From Amphiscolops sp. MND2022 (Eukaryota): 64,000 nucleotides of DNA. The notes beneath the pieces are model-generated. The model had not been told where the DNA came from. It saw only the letters and a list, made by a program, of their open reading frames with translations, and did not search any database. The translations under genes were made by a program, and so were the position numbers. The DNA is taken from the NCBI GenBank assembly GCA_964187785.1, contig OZ076419.1, positions 32,116,001 to 32,180,000 of the forward strand, read 5' to 3'. Positions 1,610-43,900 of this stretch are shown in pieces (position 1 is the first letter of the stretch; the number at the start of each line of letters is the position of its first letter).

Positions 1610-1616
1610 AAAAAAC
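1610..1616 (+). other. -1 ribosomal frameshift slippery site A AAA AAC (gag-pol, element A)
   Basis: Heptamer is phased with the gag codons just before the gag stop; I translated the -1 frame as open from 1610 into the protease ORF at 2018. Confidence 0.75.
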
Positions 1617-11598: not shown

Positions 11599-11738
11599 CT
11601 AAAACACAACCGCAAAACTAAAACAAAAATAATTAAATAAATAAATAAAAAAGTTTTTCTTTGCAGTAGTTACCTAAAGATTTTAGTACATGAGCATAAG
11701 GCTTAGAAACCTTGTAAACTAAAACCCCTCACATGATC

Positions 11739-13854: not shown

Positions 13855-13866
13855 AAAGAGGGGGAG
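13855..13866 (+). other. Polypurine tract of element A
   Basis: AAAGAGGGGGAG immediately before the LTR start TGTCA. Confidence 0.9.
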
Positions 13867-20517: not shown

Positions 20518-20699
20518 ATAAAAACAAGGCGCTCTCTGAGCACCGAATTTTTTTTCAATTCTGAACTTTATTTGAGGCGACATATTTTTGAGACTCGAGC
20601 GTAAACAATTGTTTACGCTCGAGTCTCAAAAATATGTCGCCTCAAATAAAGTTCAGAATTGAAAAAAATTTCGGTGCTCAGAGAGCGCCTTGTTTTTAT
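20518..20699. repeat. 182-bp spacerless palindrome (91-bp arms, one mismatch)
   Basis: Centre at 20608/20609 (AAACAA|TTGTTT); arms compared base by base. Confidence 0.97.
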
Positions 20700-23600
20700 T
20701 AATACAAAATATGCTGAAAAGTTTGGTTTATTTGTTGCCTTTTTTGGAAAAACCTTCATCTTTATCTCGAAAAGAGTATGCTAAGAAAATAATAAAGAAA
20801 ATATGGATATCATTACCACAAAAAATGCTTAAACTCACAAAAACTTACATGAAAATGGTCAGAAATTTTGACACTTTGTTGTTTATTTTAGGCATTTTTC
20901 CAACCAAAACAACTCGTTTTATACAAAAATTATGCAAAATCGCTAAATGCTTTGTTGTTGAACTGCAAAAAGTTGTTCAAAAATCCATAAAATTGGCAAA
21001 AAAGTTTTTTGTACGCATTTTTGGCTTTTTCGGACATTTTCAAAAATCAAAACCTTCAAATTTTCTATCAAAAAGTAAGCTAAGCATGTAATTATTTTGT
21101 CTTTGAAGGCTGTGGATGTTTTGACATTTTTGGCTCATTTTTGGGTCACTTCTCTTTCAATTTTCCGAAAAAGCTTCAAATATGCTTCGTCAAGAACATA
21201 TACTACAAATCTAATTTTATGCTAGATGAATTCTGTAGCATCAATCCCTCTATGATTAGTGTATAGAATTGGATCATTGCAAAGTCAGGCAAAAAAGGCC
21301 GTTGACTTCTTTTGCCCTTGTAATTTTTCTTTCCCTCATATAAAATATGGAGTCGGAAAAATCATTATTTGTTGTTCTTCATTTTCAGATTTCACATTAG
21401 GAAGTTTAAAAAAGATATGGACTGCAAAGAAAGATATGAAAAATGTTGCAATAAGCAATGTTAATTGAAGTGTATGTTCACCCAAATCTAATTGCCACAT
21501 GCCACCTAAAATTTTCGTCTGCCATTTAGACTCGCTTCCTACGTGGGTGCCTACAGGGGGGGGGTTGTGATTATCAGTTGCCAAGTTATTTCAGTAGCGT
21601 AAGAAATTATTTCACAACTATTACCACAACACGCGTGATGTGGCGTTGAAACCAAAGGCCTTGTTTTGTGTGTCCATAAAGAGTTGTGAAATTTTAATGG
21701 AGTCTTTTAGCCTTGCAATGATGACGGTCTCGCTTCCAGTTGGTCTAGACAGGGGTAACTTTAGGAGGTCTCAAGGAGATTGTCAGCCGTATAAGATGAA
21801 AAATCATGTTTTTCCTCTGAGCCATAAAGTAAATTATCAATCTTACTAACAATAGCTAGGAAAAACAAAAATATTTTCACACAATGATAACACACGACTT
21901 CAAAGAGCCGCTGCCTTGAGCCGGCGTCTAAAAATGCACGTGTGAAATAGCTCAAGGACGCAACTTGACAGAAAATCCTCGACGCAGATTAAATTGCGAA
22001 GTATAAATAATTTTCGCAAATGGAATTATCTTAAGTGGTTGAAAAACGTCTGTTGAATAAAATAGCAATGTGCCTTCACTGGTTAATTCAGCAACAACAG
22101 TTTCCATGAAGGTCGGCGGTTGTCGACTGAAATTTCAACTCGCGCCTTTGTTAATTCTTATTTTAGCAACTTGCCATTAACCATGCATTTTTCATGCATG
22201 CATAAGCTCTTAATTCGCTGCTGTCTAGCCAATTTCAAATCGTGAACAAATTCTTTAGGTATCAGAAGTGTGAAAAAAGCAACAAACAACTTGTGAACAA
22301 ACACTCATTCACGACCTTCATTTTTCTGCAGCGAACCAATTTGGCATCATTATAAGAATGAAAACCTTGAGATTTTCAAAGCTTTGCATTCATATCATGT
22401 CTGAACGTTACAAAAACTTGAATGCACCATGCAGCTTGCATGCACTTTTCTACTTACGATAGAAAACTCAGAATTAATGTCTTGAAACACGTCAATCATC
22501 TTTGGTATAGAGAATAAAAACAGTAAAATTAGCAAGAAAAGTTTTGTTGGAGTGAATAAAGCGTTTGATTTGCGTAATCAAATGCTAAGAGAAATTTCGC
22601 TTAAACCTCGAGACATTTTTGACAGTGTTTATCGAGGTTAATGCTACTTGAAATCGACTTCGGACTGTTTAGATTTACGATTGACTCAAGTTTCAGGGGC
22701 TTACAAGCCAAATTGGAATCAAATTTATTGGTACTTTTGACAAACAAAACTAGAAGCTGTATCGCATGCTCTGAGATTCCATGCAAACTTCAATGAAATG
22801 ACATTTCCATGAACTCTTGATGATTTACTATGTTTAACCCGATTTCACCTTCCTTGGAAATCTAGACCACAACTCGTAACAGGATTGTCATTATTTCACG
22901 GTACGACCGAGTCACGAAACGCATGGTAGTCCCATACATCATGCCCGAACTGTTCAATGATTCAATGCTTATACACAGTGTAGAAACTCTTGAAAACTAT
23001 TGATTCTGCTTTTCGTGAAACCTTTTGTAAGAATCTTGCCAAGATTCTTATCAAGAACTCCAAGAATATGTACGATCTTGTAAGATCTTGGCAAAATTTT
23101 CAAGATATTTTGCACAGGCATGATAGGGCAGATGAAAGTATTGGGCAGGTCACGACAATGCTCGCATCTACAACCTTAGTTCTCAAGAATAGATTGCTTC
23201 GAATGAACCTCGAAGAAGTATATTTTTCTTTCGAAGACATCGTAAAGTTATGACATCATACCGCAAACTGAAACTGACATCGCGAACCAAAAATCGAGCC
23301 TCGAATGATCGCTGCTCAACAAATATTGCTAACGGAACTTCAAACATAGTATTTACGGAATCATATTTTCAATGCATATCTAAAGGTGTGGGAACAATCT
23401 CCGAACTTTTCAATCTGAGGTCACAGGAACAAAAACAACACAAAGTACATGCTGCGCAGCTGAGTCAGCAAAATTTTTTGATCGTCGCTTTTGGAAAAAC
23501 GTGCGAGACTCTTACAGTGGCAAGTTTTTTTTTCAGGCACCATTGGAGGACTTTGGGGCAATTCATTGTTGTATGACTGGAGCTGTAAAATGTTGAAAAC

Positions 23601-24809: not shown

Positions 24810-25023
24810 CTTTATTGAAACGATTCAGTTTTGTATTTTCTAATTAACTCTTGTATCGTTTTTTCACAAAGTTGAGAACGAGATCAAAGAAATTGTAGAA
24901 CAACTGGTTTTAGCAAATGAAAAGGACTGACTCCCTAAGAAAACGAAGCGCCTCATATTTATACCCTCGTAGCATCATTTGATCACGAGTAAATCACTAA
25001 TATTCCATAAACAATTAGTCAAT

Positions 25024-27086
25024 TGTAAAGGTTCGATTGAGTTTAGGAGAAATTAGCCTTCTGAGACTCTTGATCAATAGTGTTTAGGAGTTAGTTTGCG
25101 ACTATGCCTTCCTAAACCTTTACAAAAGTTGTCTCTAGGTCTTCCGAGTTCGCAGGAAGGACTTTGTTTCGAGAGAAGAGTTTGAATATATGAAAAGAAT
25201 TTGAATTAGTTCGAGTATTATATTCAACAATGTTTGCTTTTACACAATACGCAAGAATACAATACAAACAGAATAATATAATCATCCAAGTTGACACAAA
25301 TATCCAATCAATAATATCTGAATTGTTTAGCATTCACCACAAATAAATACATCAATTATTTAGGGAGTAATGTTCAGGTAAGTTGTTTAAATACTATAAA
25401 AACTGGAATTTTCTGATCTTATTGTCCAGCAATTTGGTTAGGACAAGTGTGCTGACTTTTGGCCAGAATTACAGTCTATTCAGACCGGTTTGGGGTTCCT
25501 AGAGTTCTCAACAATGTAGTGAGAGTTACTAAGTCTATTGACAATTTACGTGACAGGTTTGTCACACGTTCTAGCTTATAGGAAGCGAAGAACTAGCTTA
25601 TAGGAAGCTGAGAGTTAAGTAAAATAGTTTTAGCCTATATGACCAGCCAATTACTAGGTCGAAGACAGGATTGTCTTGAGCATAGACTTATAAGAAGTCT
25701 TGCGAATCTAAGTGAATTAAGGGTCTTATCTAACCAGCATTCGCTAGGTTTTTGTTCGGACAAGATTGCCGATTGGGCTCGATCCAGAGGTTCGGTGCCG
25801 TGTTCTAAGAGTTTTAACCTATTGCAATGGACCAGCAAGTTTGCTAGGTCGAGAGGAAGACAAGTTTGTCTAAAGACTTTGAAGAAGTCTTGTGAGTCTA
25901 AGTGAGTTAAAGGCCTTATTTCAACCAGCAGTTTGCTAGGTTGCTTTTTAGACAAGATTGTCAGAATTCTGTTCAATACTTTATAAGGTTACATGCATTT
26001 TACTTTTTAATCAGTTTGTTTTACTTGCAAGTTAGCTGCAGTTATTGAAATGATCTAGACTAGCAGTCGCTAAGTCTTGACGCAATCGCGTACTAAGAGG
26101 AAAGTGATCTCCGTCGAGAATTGTTTGGGAGCGTTTAGCTCTAGTTAGTTTTCCCTATGATTTTCATAGGAGAACCTTGTCGGTTGTTTGTCTCTTCAGT
26201 CACTAGGACTGGGGGTTGTCTACAAAAGACAGGTAGGAAAAAGGAGCAAAGAAAAAAGAGAGAAATTTTGAGTTGTGAATTTTGAAGTTATTTTCTAAGT
26301 TAAAGAAAATAACTAACCTGAAGTTTGAAGCAAAGATTGGGTCGGAGAGATTTGTTCTCGCAAGAGAGAGATTTTTTTGAGAGAGATGATTTATAGCAGA
26401 GGCGAAGAGGAGAGTCAGAGTGAGAGTGTGCGAGAGATTTATGCGAGAAAAATTATGAATCAATTTGCTAGAGTCCGGCTTTTTATACGAGCCGACCGAA
26501 CGGTACAACCAATCAAATCGATTGGCGGTTTTTATTGGATACGAAATTATTTCGTCATTGCGTTGCTCATATTTGGAATCGTATTCACCACTGGATGCAG
26601 CCGAATTGGAGTCGGCGGTGATTGCATCAGCTACCGAATATGTTCGGCTAACCGAGCTGGCTGACGCAACTCTTTGTATTTGTCAGGGGAATTAATCCTC
26701 TCAAGTGGGGGACTTTGTTCCCACTTGAGAATTCTTTTGTTTAAAATTGAGAATTTGGCCGTACAAGTGGCGCCTATTATTCTCTTTTCAGAGATATTTA
26801 CTGGCACAAGTGGCGTCGCATATTGTCTTTTCAGGGGAGATAAAAGATAATTATTTGCACAAGTGGCAAGCGTTTTCTTTTGTAGAGGGGAATTCTCCCT
26901 TTCATATGACGCGCAGCTGTAATTTTGTTTATCTCTAAAGTTCTTTCAAGCGTGCCTGGAGAATTGAAAGAATTTGAGTAAGAGTTCACAAAAATTGAAT
27001 AAAAAAATTCTAGCTCCGATTGAATAATTTTCTAAATATGTTTTTTCAAATAATAAATTGAAGAAAAAGTTGTGTTAAACACAACA
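25024..27086 (-). repeat. 3' LTR of element B
   Basis: TG...CA termini; all seven ORF-track peptides match those of 39452-41514 exactly. Confidence 0.96.
25112..25333 (-). CDS. 73-aa single-transmembrane ORF in the LTR (3' LTR copy)
   Basis: ATG start; hydrophobic stretch IFVSTWMIILFCLYCILAYCV; function unknown. Confidence 0.35.
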   Translation of the reverse strand: MLNNSDIIDWIFVSTWMIILFCLYCILAYCVKANIVEYNTRTNSNSFHIFKLFSRNKVLPANSEDLETTFVKV

Positions 27087-27109
27087 ACTCACCCGGGGTT
27101 TAAGAATGA

Positions 27110-27841
27110 TTAAGTTGAAAGGGGGGCATACAGGGTATTTATGACTTTTACTTCGAAAAATATGGAATTGTTTTTTAGCCAGGGGTTCTCTGGGTTCATG
27201 AGTTCATCATGTGGGATGAAGCACAAGATGGTGATTGCTGTATTGCTGGCTGTGGGAATAGGTTTCTTGAAGCACTCACTGTTGTTGTTATTCGTCACAA
27301 TGAGCTGTTTGTAGGGTTTGTAAATATTGCCTTGACCAAGGAGGTGTATCTCGATAACGCCTTGGAAGGGCCAAGTGAGTATCTCATCGTAGGGTCCCGG
27401 ACACATAGCCAAGCATACTGACATGTATTTCCCTTTGGCAGTGTCGATGCCATAAGGATAAGCTCGTAGATGAAAGGTGTACCCAAAGGGTTGTGAGAAG
27501 AAGATAGGGCTACAGACGTCTTTTAGGCAATTAGGATCACAATAGGGTGCTCTTACATGAGACAAACTTTTTTCGTATTTTTCAGCATTCTGAAAAATAT
27601 CAGAGAATTTATCAAGCCTCCAAATAACTTTGTAGAGGTTCCAATCCCGTGGAATTGATTTCTTTTCGATACGAAGGACTCGCATCTCAAGTGCGTCGAG
27701 CTTTTTACTGATCTCGTGTATCATATCAGAATCAAATGTGTCATCTTTATATTGGGTGATATTGAGTTTTTGTCGAAGCAATAGTAACTCATTGATTAGG
27801 GAGTAGCACGTAATGAATAATATCAAAATTTTACTGCACAT
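27110..27841 (-). CDS. TRAF-C (MATH) domain protein with N-terminal hydrophobic segment and short coiled coil, 243 aa, intronless
   Basis: TRAF-type motifs VIWRLDKFS, SPIFFSQPFGYTFHLRAYPYG, GKYMSV, GPYDEILTWPF, FKKP, NSIFFEVKV; no RING or zinc fingers. Confidence 0.9.
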   Translation of the reverse strand: MCSKILILFITCYSLINELLLLRQKLNITQYKDDTFDSDMIHEISKKLDALEMRVLRIEKKSIPRDWNLYKVIWRLDKFSDIFQNAEKYEKSLSHVRAPYCDPNCLKDVCSPIFFSQPFGYTFHLRAYPYGIDTAKGKYMSVCLAMCPGPYDEILTWPFQGVIEIHLLGQGNIYKPYKQLIVTNNNNSECFKKPIPTASNTAITILCFIPHDELMNPENPWLKNNSIFFEVKVINTLYAPLST

Positions 27842-27954
27842 TTTGGAACTAACTGGGGGAAATCTTAGGTGTTTGCCAGAGCTCAGTTTTCAGAGGGGCA
27901 AACTGTTAAGAAGAAAAAATCAAAAAGAGGAAAGTTAAACGGTAGCTTGCTAAC

Positions 27955-28103
27955 CGAGAGTTGGTGGAGTCGAATTTGACAACCAGTTAGAATCAAATTG
28001 ATTCTATTGTTGAAGAATGTTCTTCAGAAACGAGAGTTGGTGGAGTCGAATTTGACAACCAATTAGAATCAAATTGATTCTGTTGTTGAAGAATGTTCTT
28101 CAG
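27955..28103. repeat. Two tandem copies of a 76-bp unit upstream of the TRAF-like ORF
   Basis: CGAGAGTTGGTGGAGTCGAATTTGAC at 27955 and 28031. Confidence 0.9.
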
Positions 28104-28420: not shown

Positions 28421-28885
28421 TTACAAATCATAAAACTGGATAAGATCCTTGTACAATTTGCTATATTTAGGTGAAGTGACACACTCAATGTCCATGACAC
28501 TGGTTAATTCACCTAACACAAGCAGATCAAATTTGGTGATGTGCCTTTCAGGTCTCTGTTCGTATGACAGGAGGGAAGCGGCTAGTGACGCGTATAGAAG
28601 GGTGTCCTTGTAGATTTGTTTCTGATACTTTTTGTCAGGCAGGTCGTAACGTTCAAAGTGAACGCAAATCTTGAATTCGTAGGTCCAAGTCCACCGAATA
28701 TAGGTGATCAAAAATTGTTTGTTGTTTTCAGCAACGAAAATAGTCCAGGGGCAATTGAAACTGAGTTCTTCGTACTTTTTCTCCCAGAGGGTATCCCAGT
28801 AAATAGTAGGAGGAGGATAAATTTGAGTAATCCTCGGTTTTGTTCTTTTGCGTGAGTCTTTTTTGAGAATAGACTGTGGGTTCAT
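28421..28885 (-). CDS. Orphan accessory protein, 154 aa from the ATG at 28885 (ORF track 181 aa); paralog of 29676-30086
   Basis: Shares CPW, WxW, KYxK, LYxSLxAxL, MDxxC and YxxxYxD with the 136-aa ORF; AATAAA about 25 nt after the stop. Confidence 0.7.
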   Translation of the reverse strand: MNPQSILKKDSRKRTKPRITQIYPPPTIYWDTLWEKKYEELSFNCPWTIFVAENNKQFLITYIRWTWTYEFKICVHFERYDLPDKKYQKQIYKDTLLYASLAASLLSYEQRPERHITKFDLLVLGELTSVMDIECVTSPKYSKLYKDLIQFYDL

Positions 28886-29103
28886 TAGAGATGGTTGTTT
28901 TCTCCTCTGAACAAATCCGAAGGTATGTCTCCCACAAATTTCATAAGGTGGAGAAAATAGTCCCAATATACTGAATGTTGATCTACAAAAACAATATCTT
29001 TTTTCGAGGTGATGTAGTGCTTTACATAGATATAGATTCTGTCTTGATGCAGCTCAGTTCTATAGATCCGGTAGAATTCGTTTTCAATTTTGATGTAGGT
29101 CAT
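28885..29103 (-). CDS. Orphan accessory ORF, 72 aa (MTYIKIENEF...), stop overlapping the next start
   Basis: ATG at 29103; its TAA overlaps the ATG of the 154-aa ORF (TAATG). Confidence 0.5.
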   Translation of the reverse strand: MTYIKIENEFYRIYRTELHQDRIYIYVKHYITSKKDIVFVDQHSVYWDYFLHLMKFVGDIPSDLFRGENNHL

Positions 29104-29127
29104 ACGACGAACTGAAATAGTCAAAAG

Positions 29128-29568
29128 TTTTTTACCCACGGCAGAGATTGATACTATGATCGTTACCGTGCTGAAAAGTTATTTACCCACGGCAGAGATT
29201 GATACTTTGATCGTTACCGTGCTCGTTTTTGTGAAAAATTCTTTACCCACGGCAGAGATTGATGCTATGATCGTTACCGTGCTGAAAAGTTATTTACCCA
29301 CGGCAGAGATTGATACTTTGATCGTTACCGTGCTCAATTTTGTGAAAAAGTTATTTACCCACGGCAGAGATTGATACTATGATCGTTACCGTGCTGAAAA
29401 GTTATTTACCCACGGCAGAGATTGATACTATGATCGTTACCGTGCTTAATTTTGTGAAAAAGTTATTTACCCACGGCAGAGATTGATACTATGATCGTTA
29501 CCGTGCTCAATTTTGTGAAAAGGTTATTTACCCACGGCAGAGATTGATACTATGATCGTTACCGTGCT
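29128..29568. repeat. Minisatellite: 8 copies of a core of about 41 bp, unit lengths 51 or 60-61 bp
   Basis: TTACCCACGGCAGAGATTGAT at 29132, 29183, 29243, 29294, 29355, 29406, 29467 and 29528. Confidence 0.95.
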
Positions 29569-29675
29569 CAAGAATTTCTGAAACGAAGGACTACAAATTA
29601 GTTATCAGTTTACGTTAAAATGACAATGAAGAGGAGAGAAAAAGAATTTTGACAAGAAGACTTTTATTTACAATA

Positions 29676-30086
29676 TTAGAAATCTTCCATTTCCTGCCAC
29701 AGCTTTAGAGTTTCAAGGAAATCAATGTACATATCATTGTAGCTCGAGTTTTTACAAACATTGTCCATCTGGCTAGAGATGGTGTTGAGAGCGTCGACTT
29801 CTTGTTTTGATAGCTGTGGTTCGGGTTTCCTCATGAACGTTACTAACGCCGCAGTGAGGGACACATAAAGGAATGAACCGGGTTTGACCCATTTGTGGTA
29901 TTTTTGTTTGGACCGGTAGTTATGGAATTTAACTTCTACATCAGCAGTTGGGTGCCAACTCCAACTTAGTTCTTCGATGATCATCGAGATTTCTTCTAAT
30001 TCGGGCATGATATTCCAGGGGCAGCATTTGAAATTTATTTTGTTTATAATCACAATAGGGATGTCGTACGCAATGACAGGCTTCAT
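29676..30086 (-). CDS. Orphan accessory protein, 136 aa; paralog of 28421-28885
   Basis: ATG start, shared motifs with the paralog, AATAAA at 29668-29663. Confidence 0.7.
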   Translation of the reverse strand: MKPVIAYDIPIVIINKINFKCCPWNIMPELEEISMIIEELSWSWHPTADVEVKFHNYRSKQKYHKWVKPGSFLYVSLTAALVTFMRKPEPQLSKQEVDALNTISSQMDNVCKNSSYNDMYIDFLETLKLWQEMEDF

Positions 30087-32437: not shown

Positions 32438-35400
32438 TTAATCTTTATAGCCTTTTCTCTCAATGTCTCGGAGGGAACTGCCAGGGGTGCTTCGTTCGTA
32501 TTTGGGGTTTTTGGGTTTTTCGGAAAACCGTGTAGTTACTTTCTTTTTGAAGTTAGATAGTTTTCCTGTTTTTGGGGAAACTTGATCAGGGGGAGACACT
32601 GTGTGGATTGGAGGAACGGATGGGAGAACCGGTGTTCTCTTGGGTAGGGGAGTGTTAGAAGAGAATGCGAGTGGTAAGACTGCCACAGGGAGACGTGGTG
32701 TTTGCATAGGTGGAAGTGGATTTGTTCCACAGCTTTGAGGGATACGTTCCCTTAGAATGGAATTGTTAGACGTAGATGGGATCGGGGTGTGAAATTGTGG
32801 GGTTTTCGGAGAAAGGATTCCAGAATCGGTACTGGGGGAAAATTCAGAACCCTTAGAAGTATTGTTATTCGATCCTGAAAGTGGAGTGATAATGAGTGGC
32901 ATAAAATCTAGTTTATGCTCAGGTTGTCCCGAGTTGTGTTTGTCAATTTGAGTTTGGACCAAACGCTTGTAAAAATTATCGTCCTGTTCTACAGGAGCGT
33001 AATTTGTCAGCAATGGGGGTAAAGTTTCCTCTTTGGGAAAATACTCTAGTAAGTGGTTTCGGTGAGTTACTTTAACATTTTCGGGGTTCTCATCTTCTTT
33101 AATCTCGTATGTGGTATTGGTTATTTGTTTTGTTACCGTGAAAGGTCCCACTCGTAATTGTTTCAATTTCTGTGATTTGGATAGGTCGGGTTTGTGATTC
33201 TCCAATAGGACCTTTTGACCAACCGCGAGCGGTCGTCCTAGTTTGAAACGGTTCCGATACTCATGAGCTTTCGATGTGATCTCTCTACATCTTTTGTAGG
33301 TAGATGAGTATATTGATTTGAAGTCGTTTTCTCTTGTAAGTAGTTCGGAAGATAACTGTGGTCTAAGGAGTCGATCGAGGGACTTGTTTCTGAGGTTATT
33401 CTCACTATGGGTGTGAGGTTGTAAATCTGCACAAAATTCTGATTTACATTGTTTGTTTTTGTCGCGAATTAGCCCAAGTTTCAAAGTCATCGGTATTTGA
33501 GGTTTGACGCCGAAGACAATCTCGTAGGGGGTCATACCCGTTGTGTAATTTACGCTTGTGTTATGGGCAAAAGCGAATTTAGATGCAAGTGTTGACCAGT
33601 TGTTTCCTGACTCGTTGGTGAAATTCCTCCAGTATCTCATGAGGTGTTTGTTTTGGACTTCAACTTTGCCATTTGTCCAGGGCGAATAAGCAGTGCGCGG
33701 TGCCAGCGTTATTCCGAACTCTTTGGTCCAATTTACAAAATCGCGGTTGATAAACGCTGAGCCATTATCGTGGACGATTTTTTGGGGAATGCCGTAGGAT
33801 GTGATCCATTTTTCTAGGGCATTGATTGTGGTCTGAGCTCCTGTATCTCGGACCGGATAGACTCCAAGAAATCTCGAGAATGCATCTACTACAACTAGAC
33901 AATGTGTATTCAGGTTACTGCTTGGTCTGATGGGACCTTTGTGGTCGATATGGATTGTTTTGAAGGGGGTTGTCTCGAGTTCGCCCCATTGTTCAAGAGG
34001 AGCTTCTTGTAGATCGTGTCGTTTAGACTTGTTAGTCTGGCATTGTAGACAATCTTCTATCAGGGATACTATCCACTTATATCGTCCAGGCCAAAAGAAA
34101 TTTTGTCTGATGTTTTCGAATGTTTTAAATATGCCTGGGTGGCCACTGTGAGTATGAGCGTGGGCCAGATTAAAGAGGGGTAGGAATAATGATAAGGGGA
34201 CACAGATTTTCATTTCGCATTTGTCCGTCCCATGAATAGGTTCGTTATAGCAGAGTAGGTTGCTTTCTTTATCGAGAAAAAGTTGATTGAAATTGTTGAA
34301 GTACGACAGCAAAGCCTTCGATTGGTGAATCTCTGGTGTTTTGGCGTTCGGCTTATTCTTGTTTCTAACCCAAGCTCGTACAATTTGTAATACAGGATCG
34401 TTGATTTGTTCTGCAACTAAGGTGGTGATGTCCAAATCAGCGGTTTTAGAGTAATCGCTGAGTTTTTGTAAGAGGTCTTTGGTATCAACGTGTGGGAATT
34501 GCTCGACATCTAAATTCTTGTTCAATAGAGGCCTTTCACTTTTCTGTGAAATGTTCTTTTCTTTCGCAGTTGATTTATCGCGATAGAACTCGTGATCTTC
34601 GCTAGAAAGGTGAAGTTCGGCGACTTCCTCTTCATCGTCACTGGAATCGGTTTCGATGTCGTCTATTCTACTATACTCGGGTTCATACTGTATTTTGTAT
34701 GAGGGTAGACAGAGGTTTTTGTATTGATTGATGGATTTTCCCAGTTTGAAACAGTCAGCGATGTCTTGGCGAGTCGCCATTACTGTTTGTTGGTTCTCAT
34801 AGTGCTCTACTTCATGTTCTTCTCCGTCATTCTTGAGATGGAGTAGCCTTTGATCTTTGCCTTTTTGGCAGAGGATAGGGAAAAAGTCATTGCTGCCACA
34901 ATGACCATCGTCATTATGCTCGATTGCATAGTGTACTTTCGATCCAAATTCATCATAGAAACTGATATCTCGCGGTATTTCTTTGTGTAGTTTTTGTAAG
35001 TTTTGGGTTTCTTCCAGCGTGACATTTCTACTAAGTATGTCTGGGAATGCGAGGTTGGATCCTTTAGTCCAGATGATTTTGAGGTTTTGGAACTTGGTGA
35101 TGATTACCTGATACTTGAAAAAGCGATGTGAAAGCTGTCCTTTTCTTCCCCAGAGGTATAAAATAGGTTTGTGATCGCAATAGAGGTATATTGGAAATGG
35201 AGATCCAATAATGTAGTGTTCGTATGTTTGGAGTGCTGATACTATGCCACACAATTCGCGATGAAGGGTGGACATCTTTTGTTCAGCTTTGTCAAATACG
35301 CGGGAATTGAAAGAAACTATCCTTTTTCCTTCTGGAAATTGTTGAACTAGTATACAACCAGTACCAACGTTCGAAGAATCGACGTGTATGTGGAAGGGGT

Positions 35401-38026
35401 ACTCAGTTGAAGGGACAGCAAGAATAGTGTCCTCACATATACGACTTTTTATATCAGTGAAGAGGTCTTCGTGTTCTTTCGTCCATTTGAAAGGCGTTGT
35501 AGCTTTTATCAAATCGTAGAAGGGCTGGCTATCCACGTGTAAGTTTTTGATATAGCAACTGTAAAATCCAAGACAGCCAAGTACTTTCATCACATCTCTT
35601 TTACTTTCGGGTGATTTTAAGTTTTTTAGATCCTGTACTCTTTTTGCTAAGGGTTGTATTCCTTGTTCAGAAATAACATGTCCTAGGAATTTGACTTTCC
35701 TGATGAAGAAATTCGTCTTCTCAGGTGCAGCTTTAAGTCCGGCTTTCCTCAGGAGCTGATGGTACTCATGAATTATCGTGAACATTTCTTGTTTGGTCTG
35801 AGCCTGCATAAGACTGTCATCGAGATAAGTGATAGCTTGTTTTCGCTTGATGAGGGGCTCAAAATGTATAGCCATGAGACGGCTAAAAAAGTTTGGAAGT
35901 CCACAGAGTCCGTAGAAACCACGTACATACGTGTACTGTTTTCCGCCGATAATAAAACTAGTGAGTTTTTGGGTCTCGTCGCTCAAAGGTACTTGGTGAT
36001 ATGCGCAGGATAAATCGCTGACCGTGAAGTACTTTCCGTTAATCCGAGTCATAATCATCTGAATGGGTTCCAATGGCCACGAGTAATTTGTCAGATCTGT
36101 TATGGAATTTAAGTAGCGGGCGTCGATTACTAACTTTACGTAGTCTGCTTTGGGCATCAGAATGATCGGATTGACAAAAAGGGAACCTAGTTCGTCATCG
36201 TCTCCCATTTCTCTAATGATATCGGCTTCTTGGAGTTGTCCAAGTAACTTCTCAAGTTTGTCCTTCAAGTGAAGGGGTACTTTGCTTGGTCGTTGTTTCT
36301 TGAGTTCTGAATTGGCTTTGAGTGTTACGTGAAATTTTTGACGTACTTTTCCCACGTCGAATTTGTGTTGCGAATACACGTCTGCTGAGTCAATAAGCAT
36401 ATCTATTAGGACAACCAATTCTTCATCTTGGAGGTCAGTATATCGGAAATCGAATTTTTTCACATATTCCTTGATTTCTTCACGCTGATATTGGAGGTAG
36501 TATTCTATCAAAGCGTCGTTATCTTCTTTTGTTCTAAGTTCAACAAATTGTTCTGTACAGGGTGGCTGACAAGATTTAGCGTCCGTAGCAAAATCTGTTT
36601 CAAGTTCTTCAGTACCATTAGCAAATTGTTCTGTATAATAGTCAATATCTCCTTCTTCTACTTCTTCTTTTCGTATGGAAGCGTTAACAAGTTGGAGGTT
36701 CGGTTCGTTTCGTGATACGATCTCGACTTTAATATGTCCATAATCGAAGCTGTTACGGATTATGTCCAAAGCTCCTTTCCAGTGGATGTTATCTAAGCCA
36801 TCTTCAATTTTGGGTATTGAAATTGCAGGTATATTGTTTAGTTGTGCGTGTCCAACCAAATTTTCGATGCAACTGCGAAAATCTTCGGGTTTAATTTTTT
36901 CGTAACATCTCTTTTTTGCAACTAGTCCATAGATGAAGCGATTGGCTTCGTTATCCCAAAAGGGTAAAACTGATCCGACGAAAGGTTTCGATTGGTTCAC
37001 GAACTTCTGAAAATCTTTCTTCTGTTCGCACAACCTTTTTGCGAACGTGGTTGTCATTTTTCCATCTGCTGAGACACAAAAAGCTAGATTTGCATTTGAG
37101 GCTCGAAGGGTCTCGCCGGAGCCGTGGCTTAGAAAAACTTGTTGGTCTCCTTCGTGTTCGAAGGGAACTGTTGAGTGTAGCAAGAAACAGTCGTTGTAGT
37201 CTGGGTTTTCCTTTAAAATTGTGTTGACCATCGTGACACAATCCTTTATCTGGAACTTTGGTCGTTCTTTTTCCTGTAGGTCTATGACAGCATGACCAAT
37301 TATTCCTCTATTAAGGGTTATTTGGTGATTTCGATTATTTTCAATCAAAATTGGCAGGTGGGATTCGGACTTCGTACATAAAACATTCACAAAGGTAAGT
37401 CCTGTTTTGACTGCATTTTTGTGGGGTGTGAATGATGTTCCGGGTGCAAAATGTCTGTTATTTTCGCGGGAGTACTTGTGTAGGCGGGTAGTTTTGGCAT
37501 CGATGCAAATTGGGTTATCTGTTCGTATTGTTTCGACCTTTGAAACGTACGGGAAGGGTTTGGTAGCACAAAGGTTACCGTAGCAAATCGTGTTAGGACT
37601 GTCTTTCAATTCGATTGCAGGCAAATCAAAATGTAATTTAGAAACAAGTTGACGGCAGAAATCTATTCCCAGTAAATTGGGTGTCTTCGCTTCTGTTATC
37701 CAAAACTTTAGCTCTACAGGATGGAGTCCATCCGAGTCGAAACTGAATGTGATTGTTGTTGATCCAAGCATCGGTATAACTTCGCCAGTATAGGTTTTAG
37801 TCAGCTGTTTGCTCCTGACTACCGTGATGGGTTGTCCAAACTGTGCAATTTCCTCAAAAGCTCTGTAATTGATGATTGAACAGGCTGCTCCTGTATCTAG
37901 CATGAATTCTATTTCTAACCCACTATCTTTTTTGGAGTCTCCGGTGGGAAAAAAGAAGAGATTTAGGTGAAAACGTGATTTGAGGTTACTTTCTTCGTCA
38001 GGTCGCGGAGACTTTAGCAGTTTAAA
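32438..38026 (-). CDS. pol: Pol of element B: protease, macro domain, RT, RNase H, integrase; expressed by -1 frameshift from gag
   Basis: LDTGA; YLDD; HVDSS / ELCG / CDHKP; HHCC; IHIDHKG / VHDNGSAF / VEVQN; GPF. Uninterrupted 1821 aa from ATG 37903, with the frame open back to 38026. Confidence 0.97.
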   Translation of the reverse strand, partial: FKLLKSPRPDEESNLKSRFHLNLFFFPTGDSKKDSGLEIEFMLDTGAACSIINYRAFEEIAQFGQPITVVRSKQLTKTYTGEVIPMLGSTTITFSFDSDGLHPVELKFWITEAKTPNLLGIDFCRQLVSKLHFDLPAIELKDSPNTICYGNLCATKPFPYVSKVETIRTDNPICIDAKTTRLHKYSRENNRHFAPGTSFTPHKNAVKTGLTFVNVLCTKSESHLPILIENNRNHQITLNRGIIGHAVIDLQEKERPKFQIKDCVTMVNTILKENPDYNDCFLLHSTVPFEHEGDQQVFLSHGSGETLRASNANLAFCVSADGKMTTTFAKRLCEQKKDFQKFVNQSKPFVGSVLPFWDNEANRFIYGLVAKKRCYEKIKPEDFRSCIENLVGHAQLNNIPAISIPKIEDGLDNIHWKGALDIIRNSFDYGHIKVEIVSRNEPNLQLVNASIRKEEVEEGDIDYYTEQFANGTEELETDFATDAKSCQPPCTEQFVELRTKEDNDALIEYYLQYQREEIKEYVKKFDFRYTDLQDEELVVLIDMLIDSADVYSQHKFDVGKVRQKFHVTLKANSELKKQRPSKVPLHLKDKLEKLLGQLQEADIIREMGDDDELGSLFVNPIILMPKADYVKLVIDARYLNSITDLTNYSWPLEPIQMIMTRINGKYFTVSDLSCAYHQVPLSDETQKLTSFIIGGKQYTYVRGFYGLCGLPNFFSRLMAIHFEPLIKRKQAITYLDDSLMQAQTKQEMFTIIHEYHQLLRKAGLKAAPEKTNFFIRKVKFLGHVISEQGIQPLAKRVQDLKNLKSPESKRDVMKVLGCLGFYSCYIKNLHVDSQPFYDLIKATTPFKWTKEHEDLFTDIKSRICEDTILAVPSTEYPFHIHVDSSNVGTGCILVQQFPEGKRIVSFNSRVFDKAEQKMSTLHRELCGIVSALQTYEHYIIGSPFPIYLYCDHKPILYLWGRKGQLSHRFFKYQVIITKFQNLKIIWTKGSNLAFPDILSRNVTLEETQNLQKLHKEIPRDISFYDEFGSKVHYAIEHNDDGHCGSNDFFPILCQKGKDQRLLHLKNDGEEHEVEHYENQQTVMATRQDIADCFKLGKSINQYKNLCLPSYKIQYEPEYSRIDDIETDSSDDEEEVAELHLSSEDHEFYRDKSTAKEKNISQKSERPLLNKNLDVEQFPHVDTKDLLQKLSDYSKTADLDITTLVAEQINDPVLQIVRAWVRNKNKPNAKTPEIHQSKALLSYFNNFNQLFLDKESNLLCYNEPIHGTDKCEMKICVPLSLFLPLFNLAHAHTHSGHPGIFKTFENIRQNFFWPGRYKWIVSLIEDCLQCQTNKSKRHDLQEAPLEQWGELETTPFKTIHIDHKGPIRPSSNLNTHCLVVVDAFSRFLGVYPVRDTGAQTTINALEKWITSYGIPQKIVHDNGSAFINRDFVNWTKEFGITLAPRTAYSPWTNGKVEVQNKHLMRYWRNFTNESGNNWSTLASKFAFAHNTSVNYTTGMTPYEIVFGVKPQIPMTLKLGLIRDKNKQCKSEFCADLQPHTHSENNLRNKSLDRLLRPQLSSELLTRENDFKSIYSSTYKRCREITSKAHEYRNRFKLGRPLAVGQKVLLENHKPDLSKSQKLKQLRVGPFTVTKQITNTTYEIKEDENPENVKVTHRNHLLEYFPKEETLPPLLTNYAPVEQDDNFYKRLVQTQIDKHNSGQPEHKLDFMPLIITPLSGSNNNTSKGSEFSPSTDSGILSPKTPQFHTPIPSTSNNSILRERIPQSCGTNPLPPMQTPRLPVAVLPLAFSSNTPLPKRTPVLPSVPPIHTVSPPDQVSPKTGKLSNFKKKVTTRFSEKPKNPKYERSTPGSSLRDIERKGYKD
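36715..37140 (-). other. TARG1/Poa1-type macro domain within Pol
   Basis: LAFCVSADGKM...FAK, FIYGLVAKKR, SIPKIEDGLDNIHW, IKVEIV are collinear with the TARG1 consensus AHCxSxDxxMGxGIA, YYLxTK, MPRIGCGLDxLxW. Confidence 0.8.
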
Positions 38027-39408
38027 GGATTGAACGAGACTGTACTAACTCTGTCCTGTCCTTCTTCGTCAATGAACTGTACGGAGTTTGGGAAACTGTT
38101 ATTGTTGGTCGGGAAATTTCGGTTGTACTCAGAATTTGTGTTTTGTGGTCGTGCACTGAAGTTATACGGGCTATTTGGCCTATTTCCAGTATAGGGTGTA
38201 TTATTTCGCAAATTGGTACTAGTAGAAGTTGGTCTACTACTTGAAGGGTGATTGTTATTGCCATTGAAGTTGTTGAAGTTGTTTGACTGCTGAGAATTAT
38301 TTCGGTTCCAGTTTTCATTTCGATTGTTTCCTTCGTTAGGTCTGCCTCTGTTGAAGTTTTGGTTCGACTGTTGGTTACTTCTTTGATTATTGGTGAAGTT
38401 CGGTCTTGGTGAAGACTGATAATTTTGTTGTGATCCAAATCCGGGTCCCTTCCGTTTGTTGTAGTCGTTGGTGAAGGTGACCTTCTTCTCTTCATTAGCT
38501 CGTGATTGTGCTCTCTTGGCTTCGTCATCGTAGATCTTCTTTCGGCAATATTGGAGTGTATGACCCTTCCTTTGGCAGTATTTACAAAATCGTGTGATGT
38601 TTTGGCGGGACGTGTTATTTACGTCTACTGCAGAGACGTGATAATCATGCCAGTGAGAGGATGGGCATCCGTAGGGTAGAGAGTTAGTTACAGCTAAAGA
38701 ATTGACTTGTTGTTCTTTGAGCATATTCTTCATTGCGTTGATGTCTTCTCGTAGTTCGTTTATCAACGTTTTTTGGTTTTGTGAGGAGTTCGGAGCTAGC
38801 TGAGAGCTGATAGTAAAAACAAGGTCTTTATTAGTTACATGTTCCTGAAATTGTTCCCAAGTAGCGTTGGGGTGTTCAATTAGGTATTGGTGAGCCTTGT
38901 TCTTTAGTTCGTTAGGCGTTAGTCCTCTGACTGCAAATTCAATGTACTTTTGCCTTCTTTGAGCGTTCAGTGCGGCTCTAGCTGCGTTATCAGCATTTTC
39001 TTCGTCTGGCCATCCTCTATCGACAGCTCGTTTCACTCGGTGAAAGTAGTTCTTTATTATTTCTTCATTCCCTCTGACACTATTTTCTGCAGTTATTCTG
39101 TATCTGTATTTATCTCTATTGTCGGAAAAGCGGGTTAGGAAATGGGTTCTAATATGTTGCCAATCGTGTCCATCTCCTATGTTGTCTGTATACCACTCGG
39201 CGGCAGGTCCTCTTAGTAGGGATGAGAAAAGTGCTTTTTTGCGAAATAAGTATCTTGCTCGATCGTCATCATTGTCGGGTTCATGACCCATCGAGAAATT
39301 GATTTTGTTCTCAACAGTTGTGAGAAATGATCTGACATCTTGTTCGGGATCGTTTCCTGAGAATTTGTCCAAAGCGAGGTCGGGAAATGAAACTGTGTTG
39401 TCTGCCAT
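38014..39408 (-). CDS. gag: Gag of element B, 464 aa
   Basis: Capsid-like KFSG...SSLLRGPAAEWY; zinc knuckle CKYCQRKGHTLQYC; Asn-rich tail. Confidence 0.95.
   Translation of the reverse strand: MADNTVSFPDLALDKFSGNDPEQDVRSFLTTVENKINFSMGHEPDNDDDRARYLFRKKALFSSLLRGPAAEWYTDNIGDGHDWQHIRTHFLTRFSDNRDKYRYRITAENSVRGNEEIIKNYFHRVKRAVDRGWPDEENADNAARAALNAQRRQKYIEFAVRGLTPNELKNKAHQYLIEHPNATWEQFQEHVTNKDLVFTISSQLAPNSSQNQKTLINELREDINAMKNMLKEQQVNSLAVTNSLPYGCPSSHWHDYHVSAVDVNNTSRQNITRFCKYCQRKGHTLQYCRKKIYDDEAKRAQSRANEEKKVTFTNDYNKRKGPGFGSQQNYQSSPRPNFTNNQRSNQQSNQNFNRGRPNEGNNRNENWNRNNSQQSNNFNNFNGNNNHPSSSRPTSTSTNLRNNTPYTGNRPNSPYNFSARPQNTNSEYNRNFPTNNNSFPNSVQFIDEEGQDRVSTVSFNPLNC
38020..38026 (-). other. -1 frameshift slippery site U UUA AAC (element B)
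   Basis: Phased with gag codons just before the gag stop; the -1 frame is continuous with pol; an 8-bp stem AGTCTCCG/CGGAGACT starts 6 nt downstream. Confidence 0.85.
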
Positions 39409-39431: not shown

Positions 39432-39448
39432 CCTCACTGGTCGCACCA
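39432..39448 (-). other. Primer-binding site of element B
   Basis: TGGTGCGACCAGTGAGG, 3 nt after the 5' LTR; the tRNA identity is uncertain (pattern resembles elongator tRNA-Met). Confidence 0.75.
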
Positions 39449-39539
39449 GTTTGTAAAGGTTCGATTGAGTTTAGGAGAAATTAGCCTTCTGAGACTCTTG
39501 ATCAATAGTGTTTAGGAGTTAGTTTGCGACTATGCCTTC

Positions 39540-39761
39540 CTAAACCTTTACAAAAGTTGTCTCTAGGTCTTCCGAGTTCGCAGGAAGGACTTTGTTTCGA
39601 GAGAAGAGTTTGAATATATGAAAAGAATTTGAATTAGTTCGAGTATTATATTCAACAATGTTTGCTTTTACACAATACGCAAGAATACAATACAAACAGA
39701 ATAATATAATCATCCAAGTTGACACAAATATCCAATCAATAATATCTGAATTGTTTAGCAT
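39540..39761 (-). CDS. 73-aa single-transmembrane ORF in the 5' LTR, upstream of gag
   Basis: Same sequence as 25112-25333; sense orientation; lies in the predicted leader. Confidence 0.35.
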   Translation of the reverse strand: MLNNSDIIDWIFVSTWMIILFCLYCILAYCVKANIVEYNTRTNSNSFHIFKLFSRNKVLPANSEDLETTFVKV

Positions 39762-40908
39762 TCACCACAAATAAATACATCAATTATTTAGGGAGTAATG
39801 TTCAGGTAAGTTGTTTAAATACTATAAAAACTGGAATTTTCTGATCTTATTGTCCAGCAATTTGGTTAGGACAAGTGTGCTGACTTTTGGCCAGAATTAC
39901 AGTCTATTCAGACCGGTTTGGGGTTCCTAGAGTTCTCAACAATGTAGTGAGAGTTACTAAGTCTATTGACAATTTACGTGACAGGTTTGTCACACGTTCT
40001 AGCTTATAGGAAGCGAAGAACTAGCTTATAGGAAGCTGAGAGTTAAGTAAAATAGTTTTAGCCTATATGACCAGCCAATTACTAGGTCGAAGACAGGATT
40101 GTCTTGAGCATAGACTTATAAGAAGTCTTGCGAATCTAAGTGAATTAAGGGTCTTATCTAACCAGCATTCGCTAGGTTTTTGTTCGGACAAGATTGCCGA
40201 TTGGGCTCGATCCAGAGGTTCGGTGCCGTGTTCTAAGAGTTTTAACCTATTGCAATGGACCAGCAAGTTTGCTAGGTCGAGAGGAAGACAAGTTTGTCTA
40301 AAGACTTTGAAGAAGTCTTGTGAGTCTAAGTGAGTTAAAGGCCTTATTTCAACCAGCAGTTTGCTAGGTTGCTTTTTAGACAAGATTGTCAGAATTCTGT
40401 TCAATACTTTATAAGGTTACATGCATTTTACTTTTTAATCAGTTTGTTTTACTTGCAAGTTAGCTGCAGTTATTGAAATGATCTAGACTAGCAGTCGCTA
40501 AGTCTTGACGCAATCGCGTACTAAGAGGAAAGTGATCTCCGTCGAGAATTGTTTGGGAGCGTTTAGCTCTAGTTAGTTTTCCCTATGATTTTCATAGGAG
40601 AACCTTGTCGGTTGTTTGTCTCTTCAGTCACTAGGACTGGGGGTTGTCTACAAAAGACAGGTAGGAAAAAGGAGCAAAGAAAAAAGAGAGAAATTTTGAG
40701 TTGTGAATTTTGAAGTTATTTTCTAAGTTAAAGAAAATAACTAACCTGAAGTTTGAAGCAAAGATTGGGTCGGAGAGATTTGTTCTCGCAAGAGAGAGAT
40801 TTTTTTGAGAGAGATGATTTATAGCAGAGGCGAAGAGGAGAGTCAGAGTGAGAGTGTGCGAGAGATTTATGCGAGAAAAATTATGAATCAATTTGCTAGA
40901 GTCCGGCT

Positions 40909-40966
40909 TTTTATACGAGCCGACCGAACGGTACAACCAATCAAATCGATTGGCGGTTTTTATTGG
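40909..40966 (-). promoter_or_regulatory. Putative LTR promoter of element B (CCAAT boxes and TATAAAA)
   Basis: Minus-strand CCAAT at 40966-40962 and 40953-40949, TATAAAA at 40915-40909; the same motifs lie at 26481-26538 in the 3' LTR. Confidence 0.6.
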
Positions 40967-43900
40967 ATACGAAATTATTTCGTCATTGCGTTGCTCATAT
41001 TTGGAATCGTATTCACCACTGGATGCAGCCGAATTGGAGTCGGCGGTGATTGCATCAGCTACCGAATATGTTCGGCTAACCGAGCTGGCTGACGCAACTC
41101 TTTGTATTTGTCAGGGGAATTAATCCTCTCAAGTGGGGGACTTTGTTCCCACTTGAGAATTCTTTTGTTTAAAATTGAGAATTTGGCCGTACAAGTGGCG
41201 CCTATTATTCTCTTTTCAGAGATATTTACTGGCACAAGTGGCGTCGCATATTGTCTTTTCAGGGGAGATAAAAGATAATTATTTGCACAAGTGGCAAGCG
41301 TTTTCTTTTGTAGAGGGGAATTCTCCCTTTCATATGACGCGCAGCTGTAATTTTGTTTATCTCTAAAGTTCTTTCAAGCGTGCCTGGAGAATTGAAAGAA
41401 TTTGAGTAAGAGTTCACAAAAATTGAATAAAAAAATTCTAGCTCCGATTGAATAATTTTCTAAATATGTTTTTTCAAATAATAAATTGAAGAAAAAGTTG
41501 TGTTAAACACAACACAATTCCTGTATTTTCGATGAAAAAGTCATTATAATCCCAAATTTGCGTCGACTTGTCGTCATTTTTTAAGACACGACATTTCTTA
41601 TCTAGCATTAGTCATCAAACATGATCATATCCTTTCATTCCGGCGTCCTTTTGTTTCCTCCCAAACAGGAAGTAGATATTACTTCAGTCCGTCAAACTGG
41701 AAGTATTTCCCCGTTTTACTAATTTGGTTCGTTAGAAACTGACGCGGAAATGACGCTGACGTGAACAACTGATACCTGATTTTGATTTTTTACTCGATGA
41801 AAATCACGACTAATCGCAGCTGTTTGAAATATTTGGAGATGCTAGGAGAATAAGAGAGCTGATTTTCGGATGAGTGTGCTTAATTTAGGAAAAAATTATC
41901 ACATTCAATCCTCAAATATCCGAACTGACATGATTAATGTAATCATAGGATAGCGCCGTGACAACGTCAAAATAATTATTACAACCGAAATTTGAACATC
42001 AACAATAACTTTCAACTAGCATACTGATCATTTAGGCTTATTAACGCAAAATCGAAAACATAGCATCAACGCAGAGACATCATAGTAGATAATATGAACA
42101 TACCATTATAAGGTATGAGATTAATACTAGAAAATATCATTTCTGACAAGTTTCATTACTTGATCGATGAGCGCGTCACAACAACGTCACTCTGTACAAA
42201 GTACTAGACAGAGGTTTATAACAAGCAACAAGGATGAGTATTTGTATTAATTCCCAATAGGTTAACTGTGACCTCCGTTCGTTAAAAATAGAAAGGTTTC
42301 ATTTAGATTAAACCTTCAGTGTTATCTTAGATCAGCAATAATCCTTTTGACGAGGAGTTGACGTATTCTACAGTTTTCCTGATATCCCGGTTTCAACTTA
42401 AGCCTAAACTTTGCATCTACTTTGTGTCATTTCCATTAAATTAACGCTGATTTTATCATTTTGGATGGGTTGAAACAGCTATTTTGATGGATTTGCGACA
42501 TAGCGTTGACAAGGTTTCTTAGCTAAATTGGCTAGCTGCCAAGTTTGACGAGATGCTGACGAGTCTTTTGGAATGAAATTCTGACTAACTGTCGAGTAAT
42601 TTGGAATTCTTTGTTAGCTGACAAGTTAGTGACGCATTGCTGATGTCACAAGTATGGTAATATTTGCATGTACCGTCAAGATTTGTTTACTTAGCGATGA
42701 GACGTCGTCCTAATTCTACATTAATTGCTGTTCAAAGAACAATTAAGCTGCATTCCCTTAGAAGAGGCATAATTCTTTCGGTGTACCATCTCAATGTAGT
42801 TGCTGTTTTAGATCTGATTGATGTTCTTTCTCATAGATGATTTTGGATATGTTCTCATTTAGATTAGTCTGTGATCTATATTCCAAGACGTATCGTAATT
42901 TTGTTTTCAGGTGGCGAATGTATTTATTTTGACGGGGCAAAAAAGCGTCTGAACGGAAATGCGTGCAAACATTTTGATTCATTTAGTTGCCAGTATTCAT
43001 TTTCATTTATGATTTGCGCAAAGTAGACGAGTACTTCGTGTTTTTAGTCACAGTTTATTTTGAAAATAAGTAATATAGTTTGAGTTCAATACCCGAAATA
43101 CCACTTGGAGAACCTCTGAATGGACCCCTGACGATTGCTATTCTTCTGCAGTTACACCCCAGACCGGGAGCGGACTGTGACTAAATGGATCTGAATTTTA
43201 AATTCTGGTGCTTCCTGTATCCGTTTTCGAAGATTTTGTTTGTTTGGTGGTCTACAGGCTGAGCACTACGAAAAGCTGTAACAGACCACACCGGCGACAT
43301 AAAAACAGGACTCTATCCATCGGGACGCGCACCCACGCAAGTAAAATGGGCCAGTGATGAATGACCGTCAGCCCTGGAAAAATAAATCATTTATGGCAGT
43401 TCCACCCATTGTATAACGTTTAAGCAACCTGATAACGCTTGTTGTTACATATTACAGACTACATGTAGAAAATTTACATTGTGAGGGCGGAGAGACTTTC
43501 CCAAGAATCTAACCCTAACAGAAAAAAGTTTTTCTTTGGTGGATAAGTGTTTTGCGTTGAGTAGCTTGACTAGGTTTCTCTTCAGCTCTCCGGTATGCTC
43601 TTCGGCTCAACTCAACCGATCATAAAAAGAGATGTCCAATAACCCAATCCAAGTTGTAATCAAAACCATCTCTTCAAAAAATATCGAAGCAATAAAACAA
43701 ACTCGCTAAGATTGAAATCCACGATTCAGTCGAACATTCAAAGGCAAGTCCCTGTTTTGTACAATGTCTGACTTTAGAACTACTACTGACGAACGAGTTC
43801 TTTAGCTTAGCCAAGTCTCTTGCTTTCGTCCTAAGGCTCAACTTACTGGTAGCTCTCTAACTCCGTTGCGTTCAATCAAGTAAATTCCGAATCCGCATCA

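Follow-up and report, generated by a model that had tools for sequence, protein, structure and literature searches.

A putatively retro-captured TRAF-C gene bears the marks of purifying selection in envelope-bearing Ty3/gypsy elements of Amphiscolops sp.

What is a gene for a TRAF-type signalling adaptor doing as the last gene of an LTR retrotransposon? The question arises from 64,000 nt of the Amphiscolops sp. MND2022 genome (assembly GCA_964187785.1, contig OZ076419.1, positions 32,116,001 to 32,180,000), here called the window. It holds a 243-aa ORF (27110..27841, minus strand), which a sequence-only reading had described as an intronless, sense-strand gene with a hydrophobic start, a coiled-coil-like segment and a MATH domain, and without RING or zinc fingers. 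This description held. The ORF has no stops and no introns, runs in the same sense as gag and pol, and its stop codon lies 23 nt before the 3' LTR. Pfam places it in PF21355 with an E of 7.2e-22 (78.5 bits; cut-off 27.4) and gives PF22486 as second match (E 1.2e-21), and its top PDB sequence matches were TRAF1, TRAF5 and TRAF2 (E 4e-13 to 7e-11). The TRAF-C/MATH beta-sandwich (27137..27637, minus strand) has a lineage-specific helical insertion after strand 1 and is preceded by a TRAF-N-like helix (27665..27730, minus strand; native residues 45-66), a predicted trimeric coiled-coil stalk. At the hydrophobic N-terminus, the Kyte-Doolittle 19-residue maximum is 1.91. No RING or zinc-finger family was matched in Pfam by the window ORF, by the native ORF of other copies or by the corresponding ORF of a sister family, B. 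The element's product is a TRAF-domain protein and not a canonical TRAF ligase: the N-terminal RING and zinc fingers that characterize the E3 ligases TRAF2-6 are absent from it.

The carrier is a Ty3/gypsy element with LTRs of about 2,063 bp ending in TG..CA (3' LTR 25024..27086, 5' LTR 39452..41514, both minus strand), flanked by a 4-bp target-site duplication (25020-25023 and 41515-41518). Aligned over 2,064 bases (25023-27086 / 39451-41514), the two LTRs show 100% identity, and the window element is therefore a young, very recent insertion. A sequence resembling a primer-binding site (PBS; 39433..39448, minus strand) is identical in families A, to which the window copy belongs, and B; one tight pattern found no tRNA matching it. 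A short purine-rich tract at the PPT position before the 3' LTR (27087..27098, minus strand) is likewise common to family B. The gag gene (38014..39408, minus strand) encodes 464 aa (Retrotrans_gag, 3.8e-05), and pol (32438..37903, minus strand) encodes 1,821 aa in the Ty3/gypsy order, with protease, macrodomain, RT, RNaseH and integrase, the protease being assigned from an LDTGA motif at the start. The macrodomain between protease and RT (36719..37096, minus strand) resembles TARG1/OARD1 (E 2.3e-11 to 4j5q), with a Pfam Macro score under the cut-off; it also occurs in family B (L042) and is a possible second counter-defence cargo. Two accessory ORFs without a family match follow: ORF136 (29676..30086, minus strand), which is kept in subfamily A2, and ORF154 (28421..28885, minus strand). 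A forced global alignment of the two gave 28% identity, and they may be distant paralogues. A full-length copy measures ~19 kb, with the order gag, pol, ORF136, ORF154, env, ORF169, TRAF, 3' LTR. The element has the features of errantiviruses in the wide sense (PMC13524379), namely gag and pol with PR-RT-RH-IN between LTRs, a PBS and a target-site duplication, and at the family level also an intact env with leader and transmembrane segment; the env of the window copy is reduced to 17 leading codons and is not intact.

Several other repeats were seen. Tandem repeats lie in non-coding spacers of the element's 3' region (29062-29583 and 27952-28103), with units of ~51-61 nt plus a 76-nt duplication, and their copy number differs among element copies. 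The U3 of both LTRs holds a kB-like palindrome (26886-26898 and 41314-41326), which occurs in the LTR of subfamily A1 only and is not kept in A2 or B. Elsewhere, positions 1-14908 hold a different, partly broken Ty3/gypsy element on the plus strand, without a TRAF match and with a long 3' region containing antisense ORFs (8474-9274, 10319-10873). Five tandem units of 1.2-1.34 kb with gag zinc-knuckle and protease-like frames (52610-59352) are followed by RT and integrase fragments, and a near-perfect 194-bp palindrome without spacer lies at 20512-20705.

The hydrophobic start of the window ORF belongs to another gene. The window copy lacks 2,686 bp that are found in each of three copies fetched at length, where the region lies between ORF154 and the TRAF ORF and holds a 702-aa ORF and a 169-aa ORF. 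The first 17 codons of the fused ORF (27791..27841, minus strand) match the 5' end of the 702-aa env in these three natural copies and encode its hydrophobic leader, joined in frame to the family's TRAF ORF. The junction of the deletion is a 14-nt microhomology (27791..27804, minus strand), which occurs near the starts of both the 702-aa ORF and the TRAF ORF. When junctions were counted in the 1.07-Gb assembly with 42-nt patterns and up to 2 mismatches, the fused form was found once and the native form 35 times. A splicing origin was rejected, since none of the 15 registers starts with GT or GC. When this region was resampled, 6.5% of the sequences had a repeated 14-mer, and one join in three is expected to be in frame. 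The native TRAF protein starts with a hydrophilic stretch (KD19 0.39). The hydrophobic start is thus the env leader, brought in by a private one-off deletion. The earlier idea that the fragment had been fitted with a signal or anchor peptide has to be given up, as the leader is not kept across copies, comes from env and sits at a unique junction. The microhomology is consistent with template switching or with a deletion made during repair; an assembly error is possible. The chimeric protein, if made, would enter the secretory pathway and would most likely be a dead end. A convincing signal peptide in one copy can be a by-product of a deletion, which calls for caution.

The 702-aa ORF lost here is an envelope gene, as revealed by its match to the Monjiviricetes fusion family (PF24664, E 9e-40), and has a hydrophobic segment near residues 600-626. 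Its Atlas neighbours were the class III fusogens of Monjiviricetes, rhabdovirus G and herpes gB, at a recognition level below the tool's mark. ORF169 and its family-B counterpart ORF153 (L031:3310-3816 and L041:3640-4098, both minus strand) have a disordered, proline-rich N-terminal half and a small conserved C-terminal alpha/beta domain, with a dN/dS of 0.10-0.13. ORF169 gave no Pfam match, no PDB profile match and no usable Atlas match; its model (pLDDT 59) had a best VIA Z of 4.3 and no Foldseek match at E 0.001. Acceptor-like sites precede several of these genes. A predicted splice acceptor lies ~60 nt before the env start codon (27903..27922, minus strand), A1 and A2 both have an acceptor-like site 14 nt ahead of the TRAF ATG although the sequence has changed, and another lies 6-15 nt before ORF169/ORF153 in all four copies checked. 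The background density of such sites in pol and env is ~1 per kb. In family B, no acceptor-like site was found before the TRAF ATG, which lies 7 nt past the previous stop. In the A subfamilies, the TRAF gene may be expressed from a spliced subgenomic RNA that uses the site 14 nt before the ATG.

Is the native gene maintained? The 1.07-Gb genome was searched for family A, and the best 150 of 547 candidates were scored. Apart from the window copy, 34 matches had 98-100% identity; all of them begin at query residue 13 or 14, and among these best-scoring candidates 33 of the 34 have no stop. The 250-aa protein is encoded from its ATG in 27 of the 29 copies fetched, one of the others being without ATG and one with a stop, so that among the best-scoring candidates the ORF is not disrupted in most copies. 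This intact fraction is biased upward, because only the best-scoring candidates were counted and many decayed fragments exist. The fetched copies are also young, with an LTR identity of 99.6-100%, and intact ORFs among near-identical copies therefore say little.

A comparison of subfamilies is more informative about selection. From 42 rows, minus 6 partial or fused ones, 27 intact A1 copies were compared by codon with 9 A2 copies. The TRAF gene has a dS of 1.27 and a dN of 0.069 between them; the shared variants comprise 112 synonymous against 41 non-synonymous changes, over 165 and 585 sites. At a dS of 1.2, the pairwise dN/dS is 0.053 (bootstrap 0.029-0.086). For the other genes the ratio is 0.047 (gag), 0.050 (pol), 0.019 (env), 0.13 (ORF169) and 0.13 (ORF154); for ORF136, dS is saturated. 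By its codon pattern, the TRAF gene is under strong purifying selection, like gag and pol. Synonymous divergence also differs along the element: it is 1.2-1.3 for env, ORF169 and TRAF versus ~0.5 for gag, pol and ORF154, which suggests that the three genes travel together; we infer an exchange of the whole 3' block in one piece. The mosaic was seen in L031 vs L039 and in L032 vs L038/L040. One family-A copy with near-identical LTRs (C13:20.88-20.90 Mb; L035-L036) has lost most of pol and keeps gag, env, ORF169 and TRAF, a non-autonomous form.

In layout, PBS and PPT, sister family B matches family A; it carries a 325-aa coiled-coil and TRAF-C protein in the same position. Its identity to A falls from 91% in RT to 62% in env and 31% in TRAF-C. 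Among the best 123 of 627 candidates that were scored, 98 matches are free of stops, and the dN/dS of the family-B TRAF gene is 0.11-0.14.

The donor was sought among the TRAF genes of the same genome. An intron-bearing host gene at C3:90.87 Mb is 42-48% identical to A and B over TRAF-C, and a second of the same type lies at C3:25.70 Mb. In each of them an intron follows the H of F-x-x-H, immediately ahead of the last strand, and both LTR families read through this site without interruption, as expected for capture from spliced mRNA. Proteins from other assemblies (P0029, P0043, P0167) end at the same residue as the host intron, which is consistent with an old intron. In a TRAF-C tree (42 rows, 152 columns; the second and third host genes are absent from it), A, B, the C3:90.87 Mb gene, a group of foldback copies and relatives form a clade apart from the canonical TRAFs (99/93). 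The inner branches are unsettled, two rows labelled as outgroup (P0112 and P0152) are placed inside the ingroup, and A and B form no clade in the free tree. Forcing them into one gave an AU p of 0.256, so that a single capture is not rejected; the common position of the gene in the two elements favours one capture before the A/B split. An intron-less A-type protein, P0013 (44% identity), comes from other contigs and is absent from this genome, in which the best matches of P0013 and P0075 are 44% and 38%. The A-type gene is thus probably older than this assembly's lineage and has probably been retained for long. No loci related to P0004 or P0013 were confirmed in the metagenome and viral contig collections. 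The earlier claim of a host TRAF gene retro-captured inside an LTR element is supported by both the lost host intron and the grouping with host TRAFs, and the phylogeny agrees with it at the level of the clade.

A third group of TRAF loci differs in kind. It counts 27 loci with 53-59% identity to the host exon, 23 of which keep the intron. At the five loci examined (C1:103.76-103.78 Mb, C1:78.43 Mb, C8:57.33 Mb, C76 and C2:1.93 Mb; L048-L049, L107-L110, L174-L177), inverted arms of 3-8 kb surround the TRAF gene, which occupies their centre or a place near it, and by its structure the group is a foldback-type DNA element with an intron-keeping host gene type. The arms are 97-99.7% identical and hold ~200-aa ORFs without Pfam match; a near 9-bp duplication flanks one copy.

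The absence of a RING had suggested a dominant negative made by truncation. This logic is weakened by the donor clade. With the N-terminal regions of nine canonical TRAFs as tblastn queries, RING and finger exons were found at a TRAF-like gene at C10:42.09 Mb; the same queries found no RING or finger exon upstream of the C3:90.87 Mb gene (~32 kb) or of the C3:25.70 Mb gene (20 kb). The host genes closest to the captured one seem to have no RING of their own, although longer introns could hide a RING, and a donor clade of this kind removes the simple argument from a missing RING. The C3:90.87 Mb gene starts with one finger-like CPxxxxGC exon, presumably much like TRAF1. In family A this exon is missing, as is most of the host protein's coiled coil. 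Two further loci were noted: the RING and zinc-finger gene at C10:42.09 Mb (L101-L106) showed no MATH exon in the fetched 50 kb, and at C2:79.08 Mb (L178) no RING exon was found upstream of a canonical-type MATH gene.

The native 250-aa protein was modelled with AlphaFold2 (pLDDT 85.7, 51-row alignment). In the model, two N-terminal helices precede a sandwich of eight strands, with an additional helix following strand 1; the best Foldseek match was TRAF2 (E 1e-15); in BFVD, iridovirus TRAFs came first among named viral proteins. A homotrimer was predicted at 0.63 versus 0.35 for the best control, a value likely helped by the likeness to solved TRAF trimers, with a contact agreement of at least 25% and a pLDDT of at least 69. 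In benchmarks, 21 of 30 solved pairs but none of 23 single chains came up to this mark; for eukaryotes, 17 of 29 pairs and none of 30 single chains did. The coiled-coil-like segment reappears as a helix at residues 45-66 of the model and as heptad-spaced contacts at 44-66 of the trimer, and the earlier notion of trimerization through coiled coil and TRAF-C agrees with the model. The predicted native product is a soluble cytosolic trimer.

The receptor groove departs from the textbook. Ten TRAF2 contacts were mapped through alignment to 1ca9, with a residue numbering that we take to be correct and that is consistent for all ten letters. As described for TRAF2, these are R393, Y395, F410, L432, F447, S453-S455, F456 and C469 (PMC6125299). 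The A1 protein and the host gene each keep four of the ten, and the serine triad is missing in both, so that textbook binding of PxQ motifs is not expected of proteins from this clade. This weakens the proposal of a receptor decoy in TNFR/Toll signalling. A search of the genome for NF-kB/Rel matched nothing, its control included. Family A keeps the equivalents of R393, Y395 and F456 and is unlike the host at those of F410, D399 and G468. The glycine adjoining C469 is kept in host genes but replaced by T (family A) or C (family B), a change that may give the groove a new specificity. Compared with the host gene, A1 keeps 7 of 13 positions in the groove, 6 of 14 at the trimer interface and 47 of 113 elsewhere. 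The modelled groove may be partly shared with the host, and mixed trimers get no special support, since the interface resembles the host gene no more than the remaining domain does.

We propose that a host-derived, intron-less gene for coiled coil and TRAF-C has been kept as an accessory gene of an env-bearing Ty3/gypsy element. It would have been captured once, before the A/B split, from spliced mRNA of the host's own RING-less TRAF clade. Its soluble TRAF-C trimer may compete with host TRAFs for their partners and so favour the spread of the element; this is suggested by the predicted trimer and the part of the groove that is kept, together with the loss of the finger-like exon and of most of the coiled coil. 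Interference of this kind with host TRAF signalling is the likeliest role, and we give it about an even chance. Its target would likely be host defence or cell-death signalling. A wider version of the proposal, and a less probable one, is that of an invertebrate endogenous retrovirus lineage with the organization of complex retroviruses, in which the env-ORF169-TRAF block would move as a unit and the trimer would be a dedicated antagonist of the host's lineage-specific TRAF pathway, the foldback element having independently taken the same gene type.

The TRAF-C protein could instead be a positive scaffold that recruits host partners and turns on a survival, proliferation or death pathway, aiding expression or release of the element. 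RING-less TRAF1 acts as a negative or a positive regulator (PMC4858697) and the iridovirus protein ISKNV ORF111L activates caspase 8 (PMC3352826). A gene captured from seemingly RING-less donors may keep their job, and the R393, Y395 and F456 equivalents are kept in family A. However, the finger-like exon is gone from family A along with most of the coiled coil, and the restriction of the kB-like palindrome to A1 leaves no sign of an LTR feedback loop; we consider this role unlikely. The next alternative is that TRAF-C was repurposed for the element's own life cycle, its altered groove binding the Env tail, ORF169, Gag or a trafficking factor and helping particle assembly or transport. The groove changes at the F410, D399 and G468 equivalents would suit it, as would the packing of env, ORF169 and TRAF at the same divergence level and the fall of A/B TRAF-C identity to 31% with each gene strongly constrained. 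However, no canonical TRAF-binding motif was found in the last 85 env residues or in any accessory ORF of A1, A2 and B, a single PxEE occurs in the A1 gag only, and equal constraint on the genes is also expected under an anti-host role, so we rate it as improbable.

Chances are poorer still that the gene does nothing for the element and rides in recent copies as a neutral passenger or for the benefit of the host. The youth of the near-identical copies leaves room for this, as does the second kind of mobile element with the same gene type, but a dN/dS of 0.05 at a dS of 1.2 rules out a neutral passenger; the constraint in family B and the long retention indicated by P0013 also speak against this reading. 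A decoy by design, in which a TRAF fragment was purposely given a signal or anchor peptide and acts at the membrane or after secretion, has hardly any probability: the window ORF is open, hydrophobic at its first residues and fused in frame, but the leader is env's, its junction is unique against 35 native ones, a 14-mer repeat and an in-frame join can arise at the rates given above, and TRAF-C ligands are cytosolic.

Vertebrate retroviruses and large DNA viruses have well-known accessory genes directed against host defence, while for invertebrate Ty3/gypsy elements the idea of counter-defence has so far come mostly from domain lists, as for the planarian element Burro. What this genome adds is a stand-alone TRAF gene with measured purifying selection, a host donor clade, a lost intron and two active sister families, and this family-level finding, with two active env-bearing families that each carry a selected, retro-captured TRAF gene, outweighs the single window copy. 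A 250-aa soluble protein and named host genes now open the idea to test, and the gene points to a host pathway that may restrain these elements. Under the wider proposal, two kinds of mobile element in the same genome would have convergently taken one signalling adaptor. Mobile elements bear well over a hundred of the genome's TRAF-C loci, and gene counts would wrongly report a large expansion of host TRAFs.

How does the element compare with known systems? In the open literature, apart from subscription papers and Repbase reports, Burro was the only precedent found for a retrotransposon with a TRAF domain. As described, Burro/GYPSM1 is a giant planarian gypsy element with MATH_TRAF_C and an env related to mononegavirus fusion glycoproteins; in Dugesia tigrina, MATH_TRAF_C is a separate accessory ORF, and a role in meddling with apoptosis or ubiquitin was proposed (PMC6431247). 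Both are Ty3/gypsy elements with a mononegavirus-type env and MATH_TRAF_C. By its description, however, Burro measures ~30 kb, encodes a single polyprotein of ~5,000 aa that includes MATH and has env between gag and pol, and carries BIR, BCL2, ankyrin and SUMO-like domains (PMC6431247), whereas the element here has ~19 kb and separate ORFs of 464, 1,821, 702 and 250 aa, with env as its own ORF after pol and TRAF as the last ORF before the 3' LTR, and Pfam scans of its ORFs gave no matches to Burro's four cargo domains. The element is not a Burro by layout, and its TRAF gene groups with the host TRAFs of its own genome. With the HSV/gB-type 'ancient errantiviruses', reported as gag-pol-env Ty3/gypsy elements that are widespread in invertebrates and have a class III fusogen (Chary and Hayashi, PMC13524379), it shares multiple copies, gag-pol-env, class III fusogen, LTRs and PBS. 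Beyond what is described for these, it has four further ORFs and a macrodomain in pol; the article text has no mention of TRAF or MATH, and 'traf' strings in the supplement occur only inside sequences (PMC13524379).

Among proteins, TRAF1 is the best PDB sequence match (E 4e-13) and, like the element's TRAF, has no RING; it is described as trimerizing by coiled coil and TRAF-C and regulating other TRAFs (PMC4858697, PMC6125299). TRAF1 is reported to keep the PxQ-binding hot spots (PMC6125299), whereas the element's protein keeps four of the ten contacts and has an extra helix after strand 1. ISKNV ORF111L, for which an N-terminal RING and binding to TRADD are described, is likewise a virus-captured TRAF with coiled coil and MATH, and acts on host death signalling (PMC3352826); it belongs to a large DNA virus, while the gene here is RING-less, retro-captured and from another host TRAF clade. 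The capture of TRAF genes by retrotransposons and viruses is already known from Burro and the iridoviruses, and by analogy with them the gene described here would work like a viral accessory adaptor.
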